Source: Escherichia coli 042
Lineage (GTDB): Bacteria; Pseudomonadota; Gammaproteobacteria; Enterobacterales; Enterobacteriaceae
Reading direction: 5' to 3' (one strand)
Assembly: GCF_000027125.1 (NCBI RefSeq)
Contig: NC_017626.1
Length of the DNA: 64,000 nucleotides
Part shown: in pieces, positions 8,924-9,088 of the stretch
How positions within the stretch are numbered: position 1 is the first letter of the stretch
How the letters are laid out: every line of letters begins with the position of its first letter
Translations under genes and position numbers: made by a program
Notes under the pieces: generated by a model
Seen by the model: only the letters and a program-made list of their open reading frames with translations
The model's database searches: none
What the model was told of the DNA's origin: nothing

Positions 8924-9012
8924 GGCGATCTTTATTCCTTGTAAAAGTCCCGTCAGGACCGGATTTTCAACGAATTCTCACGACAGAAAATTCTCTTCGG
9001 ATTGTGGTTGTA

Positions 9013-9051
9013 GTGTCGGATGCGCCGCGAAGGCGGCTTATCCGACCTACG
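9013..9051. repeat. REP-like palindromic element in the nuoL-nuoM intergenic gap, flanked by an outer inverted repeat (ggattgtgg ... ccacaatcc)
   Basis: gtgtcggatgcgccgcgaaggcggcttatccgacctacg matches the REP consensus family; outer 9-bp inverted repeat at about 9000..9008 and 9075..9083. Confidence 0.7.
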
Positions 9052-9088
9052 TTCTTATATGCCCAGGGGCAAGCCCACAATCCTTAAC

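Follow-up and report, generated by a model that had tools for sequence, protein, structure and literature searches.

The nuoL-nuoM gap of the Escherichia coli nuo operon holds what is most likely a decayed BIME/REPIN, a tolerated passenger that folds in the mRNA without a dedicated regulatory role. As a type of element it is nothing new, E. coli REPs having been catalogued over decades, and its function is ordinary. Its regulatory weight is small: several hundred REPs are present in this genome, the best annotated of any bacterium, and no effect of this one on nuo is visible in the data available. The junction nevertheless provides a clean natural example of the life and death of a REP element at one permissive site of an essential-pathway operon, with a history that appears to include opposite decay in E. 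coli and Salmonella, the joining of ERIC-type elements, and outright replacement in 13% of E. coli.

The window (the whole stretch of E. coli DNA analyzed, 64,000 nt) carries the whole nuo operon on its minus strand, with the genes placed as follows in the ORF listing:

20513-20956, minus strand: nuoA
19835-20497, minus strand: nuoB
17939-19741, minus strand: nuoCD
17436-17936, minus strand: nuoE
16102-17439, minus strand: nuoF
13323-16055, minus strand: nuoG
12349-13326, minus strand: nuoH
11792-12334, minus strand: nuoI
11226-11780, minus strand: nuoJ
10927-11229, minus strand: nuoK
9089-10930, minus strand: nuoL, 613 aa, with a TGA stop at 9091-9089; annotated as nuoL in matching RefSeq genomes
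7394-8923, minus strand: nuoM, 509 aa; annotated as nuoM in matching RefSeq genomes
5930-7387, minus strand: nuoN

The spacers of the first half of the operon measure 15 bp (A-B), 93 bp (B-CD), 2 bp (CD-E), -4 bp (E-F), 46 bp (F-G), and -4 bp (G-H), and those of the second half 14 bp (H-I), 11 bp (I-J), -4 bp (J-K), -4 bp (K-L), 165 bp (L-M), and 6 bp (M-N). The nuoL-nuoM gap is by far the largest, and the picture drawn by the initial annotation, of a 165-bp gap in an otherwise tight operon, agrees with these coordinates and spacings. The second-largest spacer is the 93-bp nuoB-nuoCD gap (19742-19834). A 601-nt probe spanning the nuoL-nuoM site finds a match of at least 95% identity in 5423 of 5426 complete E. 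coli genomes, lying over genes annotated as nuoM and nuoL. The RefSeq records (K-12 and others) have no annotated feature under the gap. Mechanical ORFs of 27 to 115 aa run through the palindrome or antisense to nuoL or nuoM, and we rejected them as genes. The gap and the parts of the element within it are the following:

8924-9088, minus strand: 165-nt intercistronic gap of nuoL and nuoM, transcribed together with the operon; the whole-gap RNA fold has z = -4.3
9075-9083, minus strand: 5' arm of the outer stem, GGAUUGUGG in mRNA sense, starting 5 nt past the nuoL stop; homologous arms in Citrobacter, Superficieibacter, and Salmonella
9057-9072, minus strand: remnant (16 nt) of the inverted partner REP (iREP), UUGCCC...CUGGGCAUAU, with an internal deletion of ~17 nt and a 4-bp hairpin at 9060-9071 (alignment A3 and fold)
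9010-9050, minus strand: intact y-type REP with a GTAG foot, an AA bulge, and a half-match to Rfam naRNA4
8999-9007, minus strand: 3' arm of the outer stem, CCACAAUCC in mRNA sense (repeat search and fold)

Going by its sequence, the gap element is an unremarkable E. coli REP. The REPs are a non-autonomous family of repeats associated with the RAYT/TnpA-REP transposase, and this copy presumably carries a number in the K-12 annotation (EcoCyc or GenBank U00096). On the nuo sense strand it reads cGTAGGTCGGATAAGCCGCCTTCGCGGCGCATCCGACACTAC. The repeat search places its arms at 9015-9028 / 9033-9046 (14 nt, 86% complementary), and the REP alone on the mRNA strand folds at -27.4 kcal/mol (z = -6.4), which is the ~40-nt imperfect palindrome of a y-type REP. 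The 5' GTAG tetranucleotide sits at the foot of the hairpin (9050-9047, minus strand), and the stem bulge is also present, the AA of GGATAAG lying opposite GCATCC. The GTAG foot is a described REP feature, and at 27 of 32 positions the gap REP matches GTAGGACGGATAAGGCGTTTACGCCGCATCCG, the y-REP crystallized with TnpA-REP (Messing et al. 2012). A degenerate REP pattern has six matches in the window (the gap REP and five others) where none is expected, and the site lies between two coding sequences, as befits a dispersed, high-copy, extragenic, transcribed repeat. Unlike a typical member of the REP/BIME family, the gap copy is a singlet: its inverted partner is down to the 16-nt remnant, so no complete BIME is present. 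The initial annotation had recognized a REP palindrome with an outer inverted repeat around it, the two forming a large intra-operon hairpin; the GTAG foot, the AA bulge, the 27/32 match, the repeat search, and the folds all confirm that identification.

Against the Rfam family naRNA4 (REP325-derived RNA, RF02564), the gap scores 23.2 bits (E = 0.23), below the gathering threshold of 59.5 bits; this family was built from a REP pair, and the gap matches one of its two model hairpins only. A scan of the gap together with six related loci found no fitting RNA family, yielding this sub-threshold half-match and a weak V_AS5 hit over the Serratia ERIC, and a literature search for a specific description of the nuoL-nuoM REP found none. 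The other y-type REPs of the window are on the plus strand, with GTCGGATGCG...CTTATCCGACCTAC; three form a cluster at 46967-47364 (46967, 47058, and 47331), and two are single (56748-56773 and 60191-60224).

Around the REP, the repeat search detects the outer inverted repeat GGATTGTGG / CCACAATCC at 8999-9007 / 9075-9083, paired at 9 of 9 positions with its arms 67 nt apart. By itself this repeat is only marginal, since 173 of 5000 dinucleotide-shuffled versions of the gap (3.5%) contain a perfect inverted repeat of at least 9 bp. We judge it real on comparative grounds, as an outer stem of differing sequence is found in the same position in other genera: Citrobacter sp. R56 has GGATTGCGG / CCACAATCC with one C·A mismatch, locus L044 has TTTGATTGT / ACAATCAGA, and further stems are GACTGTGGGA / TCCCACAGTC and TTTGAGTGCG / CGCACTCAAA. 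These stems come from per-sequence folds, weaker evidence than a covariation test; column-wise covariation is not countable here because indels shift the register of the stem between genera (alignment A3). The outer 9-bp repeat that the initial annotation had drawn around the REP is found where it was claimed, with comparative support from other genera. To our knowledge, a 9-bp basal stem outside the REPs is not part of the REP family consensus. The RNA structure prediction that the same annotation had proposed as a check gives a compound hairpin of 91 nt (9086 to 8996, mRNA strand) at -45.7 kcal/mol (z = -7.1), and -61.2 kcal/mol for the whole gap.

The origin of this compound structure is suggested by a comparison of the nuoL-nuoM junction from 80 species-representative Enterobacterales genomes (loci L004-L083). 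Just past the nuoL stop, Citrobacter sp. R56, Citrobacter sedlakii, Pseudocitrobacter, Phytobacter, and Klebsiella spallanzanii have two inverted REPs. In these loci, the GTAG/CTAC feet face each other over a short linker and the outer stem encloses the pair, the arrangement of a BIME/REPIN. In alignment A3, the E. coli gap corresponds to this iREP-linker-REP unit column for column, except for a 17-column deletion inside the iREP; the DNA letters left are TTGCCC...CTGGGCATAT (window about 9057-9072), and this short remnant is the reason for the small extra hairpin in the E. coli fold. The two REPs of a BIME/REPIN are present at the orthologous loci L022, L030, L037, L042, and L005, and the E. 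coli gap, with its 16-nt iREP remnant, falls short of them. The former composite palindrome had the outer 9-bp repeat for its basal stem. Like the REPINs of Bertels & Rainey (2011), the orthologous loci of Citrobacter, Klebsiella, Phytobacter, and Pseudocitrobacter have an inverted REP pair that forms one long hairpin, whereas the E. coli nuoL-nuoM copy is a decayed singlet.

In Salmonella, loci with ~94-95% identity to the arizonae locus L006 in their flanks have a 250-bp allele (L085, L087, and L090-L092, positions 951-1200) in which the outer 5' arm and the iREP survive and the GTAG REP and the 3' arm are missing. Being the mirror image of the E. coli gap, this allele points to reciprocal decay of an ancestral two-REP element, and the simplest reading would be that this element decayed oppositely in different lineages. 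A two-REP element was apparently at this permissive nuo junction since before Escherichia, Salmonella, Citrobacter, and Klebsiella diverged, and the vertical inheritance reported for REPIN populations fits such a long persistence.

The junction is also polymorphic within E. coli, as counted in the 5426 complete genomes. The 165-bp allele of the window, with its perfect 9-bp outer stem, is a minority state (323 of 5426 genomes), and it shares its 3' arm, AACCACAATCCGAAG (8999-9007), letter for letter with Citrobacter sp. R56. The K-12-type allele of 163 bp is found in ~4376 genomes, about 81%. Its 3' arm, CCCCAGTCC, within L001 3612-3700, has a 2-nt deletion and two substitutions relative to the 165-bp allele and still pairs; the resulting outer stem contains a single bulge and a single G-U pair, and the fold is -42.7 kcal/mol. 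The remaining large group (724 genomes, 13%, including O157:H7, O55:H7, and O102:H6) has a REP-free allele of 230 bp and unrelated sequence, in which none of the REP signature motifs is present. This 230-bp allele (L002/L003, positions 525-754) is identical at 230 of 230 positions to the Salmonella arizonae-type gap (L006, 1271-1500), the shared gap being listed also for L086, L088, L089, L093, and L094, and the flanking genes of the two are 85% (nuoL) and 90% (nuoM) identical. The shared patch breaks off in the final ~9 nt of nuoL on one side and somewhere from nuoM +27 to +75 on the other; with a length of about 260-310 bp, it has the look of a very short replacement that both species have in common. 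Since the patch has relatives in Citrobacter, the Salmonella/Citrobacter side is suggested as the donor, a direction that we infer.

The length of the nuoL-nuoM gap differs widely between species (21-291 nt, with a median of 128, in 79 loci), and all 76 loci measured for nuoM-nuoN have a spacer of 6-7 nt there. The 76-nt gaps of Citrobacter werkmanii, Citrobacter braakii, Enterobacter cloacae, and Atlantibacter miss the whole palindrome including the outer stem, and gaps of 21-27 nt hold a Shine-Dalgarno sequence only; no nuoL-nuoM overlap occurs among the sampled species, the smallest gap being 21 nt. These alleles and gap ranges make nuoL-nuoM the one plastic junction in this part of the operon and the REP dispensable in nature. 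The initial annotation had proposed a comparison across Enterobacteriaceae, taking absence of the element from close relatives with no effect on nuoMN expression as grounds against its own idea of a regulatory hairpin. The absence part is what we find, in 724 of 5426 E. coli genomes and in many relatives, some with gaps of 21-27 nt. The natural alleles (27, 76, 163, 165, 230, and 250 nt) are a ready-made series for testing the effects of an intra-operon REP. Among gaps of at least 60 nt, 83% fold with z below -2, which could reflect either selection for structure or merely the palindromic nature of small bacterial repeats. In many gaps (Buttiauxella, Rahnella, Serratia, Erwinia, and Hafnia), the nuoL stop is immediately followed by unrelated GC-rich hairpins.

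On the nuoM side of the element, the last ~50 nt before the nuoM start (8924-8974, minus strand) are common to about 29 Enterobacteriaceae species (alignment A2), with these features:

8962-8974, minus strand: leader motif TTCGTTGAAAATC, 13 nt (alignment A2)
8946-8960, minus strand: small hairpin GGUCCU-GAC-GGGACU, just upstream of the nuoM Shine-Dalgarno, with a fold of -6.3 kcal/mol
8935-8940, minus strand: nuoM Shine-Dalgarno AAGGAA, invariant in alignment A2

The invariance of the leader motif is partly by construction, because the 29 species were picked with a regular expression made of its first 10 nt; only 23% of the nuoM third-codon columns are invariant in the same species. The small hairpin, of 6-7 bp, has 92.9% of its cells paired and three pairs changed on both sides (C-G to U-A), and its covariation score is reached by 0 of 500 shuffles. 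Two further roles for the leader were rejected, TTGAAA of the motif as an internal promoter (no consensus in 8700-9300) and the small hairpin as an intrinsic attenuator (no terminator-like site in the same interval).

Repeats of another family have entered the same junction. The Serratia gaps (L058, L064, L068, L070, and L071) contain a canonical ERIC, which in L058 matches the ERIC1R/ERIC2 primer core at 38 of 40 positions. An ERIC-related palindrome of 118 bp, matching 24 of 34 core positions, is found in Salmonella, Citrobacter, Pantoea, and the E. coli 230-bp allele, where it occupies positions 82-199 of the L002 gap and has 4-5 detectable copies per genome; one copy is located between pheM and pheS in the laboratory strain CJ236 (L084, 1501-1618). 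The two arms of the small leader hairpin enclose the ERIC-related element in Citrobacter, Kosakonia, and several further loci, and in the Salmonella arizonae-type/E. coli 230-bp allele the element lies in a diverged counterpart of that hairpin without the 13-nt motif. ERIC/IRU elements resemble the gap REP as transcribed palindromic repeats inside operons, here at one and the same junction, but they are a different repeat family, and the ERIC-related unit sits between the leader-hairpin arms, not beside the nuoL stop. ERIC effects on mRNA stability in Yersinia are orientation-dependent.

In the reading that we favor, the element would have settled at the only nuo junction with room for extra sequence, flanked by the nuoL stop and the conserved ~50-nt nuoM initiation leader; insertions may be tolerated there because nuoM, as we propose, initiates from its own leader and not through stop-start coupling. 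One REP would have stayed intact while the inverted partner lost about 17 nt and the basal stem remained. Transcribed within the nuoA-N mRNA, the element would fold into a compound hairpin of ~85 nt with, at most, a generic and context-dependent REP effect (slower 3'-to-5' exonucleases or mild attenuation of read-through), and it would not set the ratio of nuoMN to nuoA-L. The initial annotation had instead proposed that the hairpin acts in mRNA processing or stability or as a pause site, tuning nuoMN relative to nuoA-L. As a generic REP property this is legitimate, but the published data on the locus are against it.

In its functional form, that proposal would have the hairpin block PNPase and RNase II after a downstream endonucleolytic cut and so prolong the nuoA-L mRNA, or partly terminate or pause transcription, leaving nuoM and nuoN lower or separate. 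We consider this unlikely, even with good precedents: the malE-malF REPs stabilize upstream message, the upstream/downstream ratio at REP325 in yjdMN goes from ~35 to ~1 on deletion, and REP-containing tandem pairs are upstream-biased genome-wide (median log ratio of 0.96 versus -0.09, with very large variance; Harris et al. 2026, preprint). The nuo gap is like these loci in having a REP hairpin between co-transcribed genes, a potential exonuclease barrier (plausible for a very stable fold of -46 kcal/mol) and site of partial Rho-dependent termination. At malE-malF and REP325, unlike nuo, the upstream and downstream genes differ strongly in mRNA level and stability, the nuo gap has a single REP where REP325 is an array of several, and REP effects on neighboring genes are described as highly variable and context-dependent (Harris et al. 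2026, preprint). In K-12, Dar & Sorek (2018) kept 390 operons after removing suspected internal promoters, intergenic intrinsic terminators, and known Rho termination; nuo passed this filter and was analyzed (S2 table), yet no nuo gene pair is in the S3 table of 47 operons with differential decay, which goes against tuning through mRNA stability. Mapping of 3' ends across nuoL-nuoM, another check proposed at the outset, gives a similar picture, since the K-12 Term-seq tables of Adams et al. (2021) call no end in the gap (K-12 2393042-2393204; no 23929xx-23932xx entry). The ends that they do list for the operon lie inside nuoN (2391429), nuoL (2394829), and nuoG (2399938) and in the nuoA leader, and the terminator table of Harris et al. 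(2026, preprint) groups nuoG through nuoN at the terminator after nuoN. Our consensus scan found 0 promoter-like or terminator-like sites in 8700-9300, which leaves the hairpin without the GC-rich stem plus U tract of an intrinsic terminator. The hallmarks of a malE-malF-type stabilizer, more stable or abundant upstream mRNA and a stable 3' end at the REP, were both missing in these published K-12 datasets. Such negatives concern K-12 under few laboratory conditions and depend on calling thresholds; an effect that is modest (<2-fold) or limited to certain conditions would have escaped them. Also against a stabilizer or attenuator is that the element is replaced or missing in 13% of E. coli and many relatives. 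Finally, complex I subunits are present at one copy each, and equimolar subunits leave no obvious need to tune nuoMN.

A role in translation, with the base of the stem disturbing ribosomes that terminate at nuoL (stalling, tmRNA recruitment) or insulating nuoM initiation from upstream ribosomes, seems very improbable. The outer stem does begin only 5 nt past the nuoL stop, nuoM is equipped with a Shine-Dalgarno of its own and with a leader hairpin that is conserved, and the sampled species keep at least 21 nt between the genes. However, the outer stem is imperfect in the main E. coli allele, and species with 21-27-nt gaps start nuoM without such a structure. Liang, Rudd, and Deutscher are said to have found in 2015 that expression drops when a REP lies no more than ~15 nt from a stop codon, but the REP proper starts 38 nt past the nuoL stop, outside that window. 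We would give slightly less credit still to a role at the DNA level, in which the REP would be a site for gyrase or another protein that relieves supercoiling in a 15-kb, heavily transcribed operon of membrane proteins. Gyrase, DNA polymerase I, and IHF are listed as binding or cleaving REPs (Messing et al. 2012), and the site is in the distal third of a long operon; against this, there is a single intact REP with no IHF-type linker, the REP is missing in the 230-bp allele and many species, and a model REP had no role in chromosome compaction (Harris et al. 2026). A broader idea is that nuoL-nuoM is an ancient site selected for structure and not for sequence, where any stable hairpin (REP/BIME, ERIC, ERIC-related, or GC hairpin) is kept or recruited to protect nuoA-L or insulate nuoM. 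The strong folding of 83% of the longer gaps and the outer stems kept through different sequences are compatible with it, and the preservation of the outer stem in several genera could mean selection for structure, a point that weighs on the passenger view; all the same, we regard the idea as doubtful. If it were true, the ~50-nt nuoM leader would be either a processing site or a true cis-regulatory RNA, with control over NuoM synthesis.

The inner REP stem (9032-9039) also has an 8-bp perfect complement at 8880-8887, in nuoM codons ~12-15, which was judged to lie within chance expectation.
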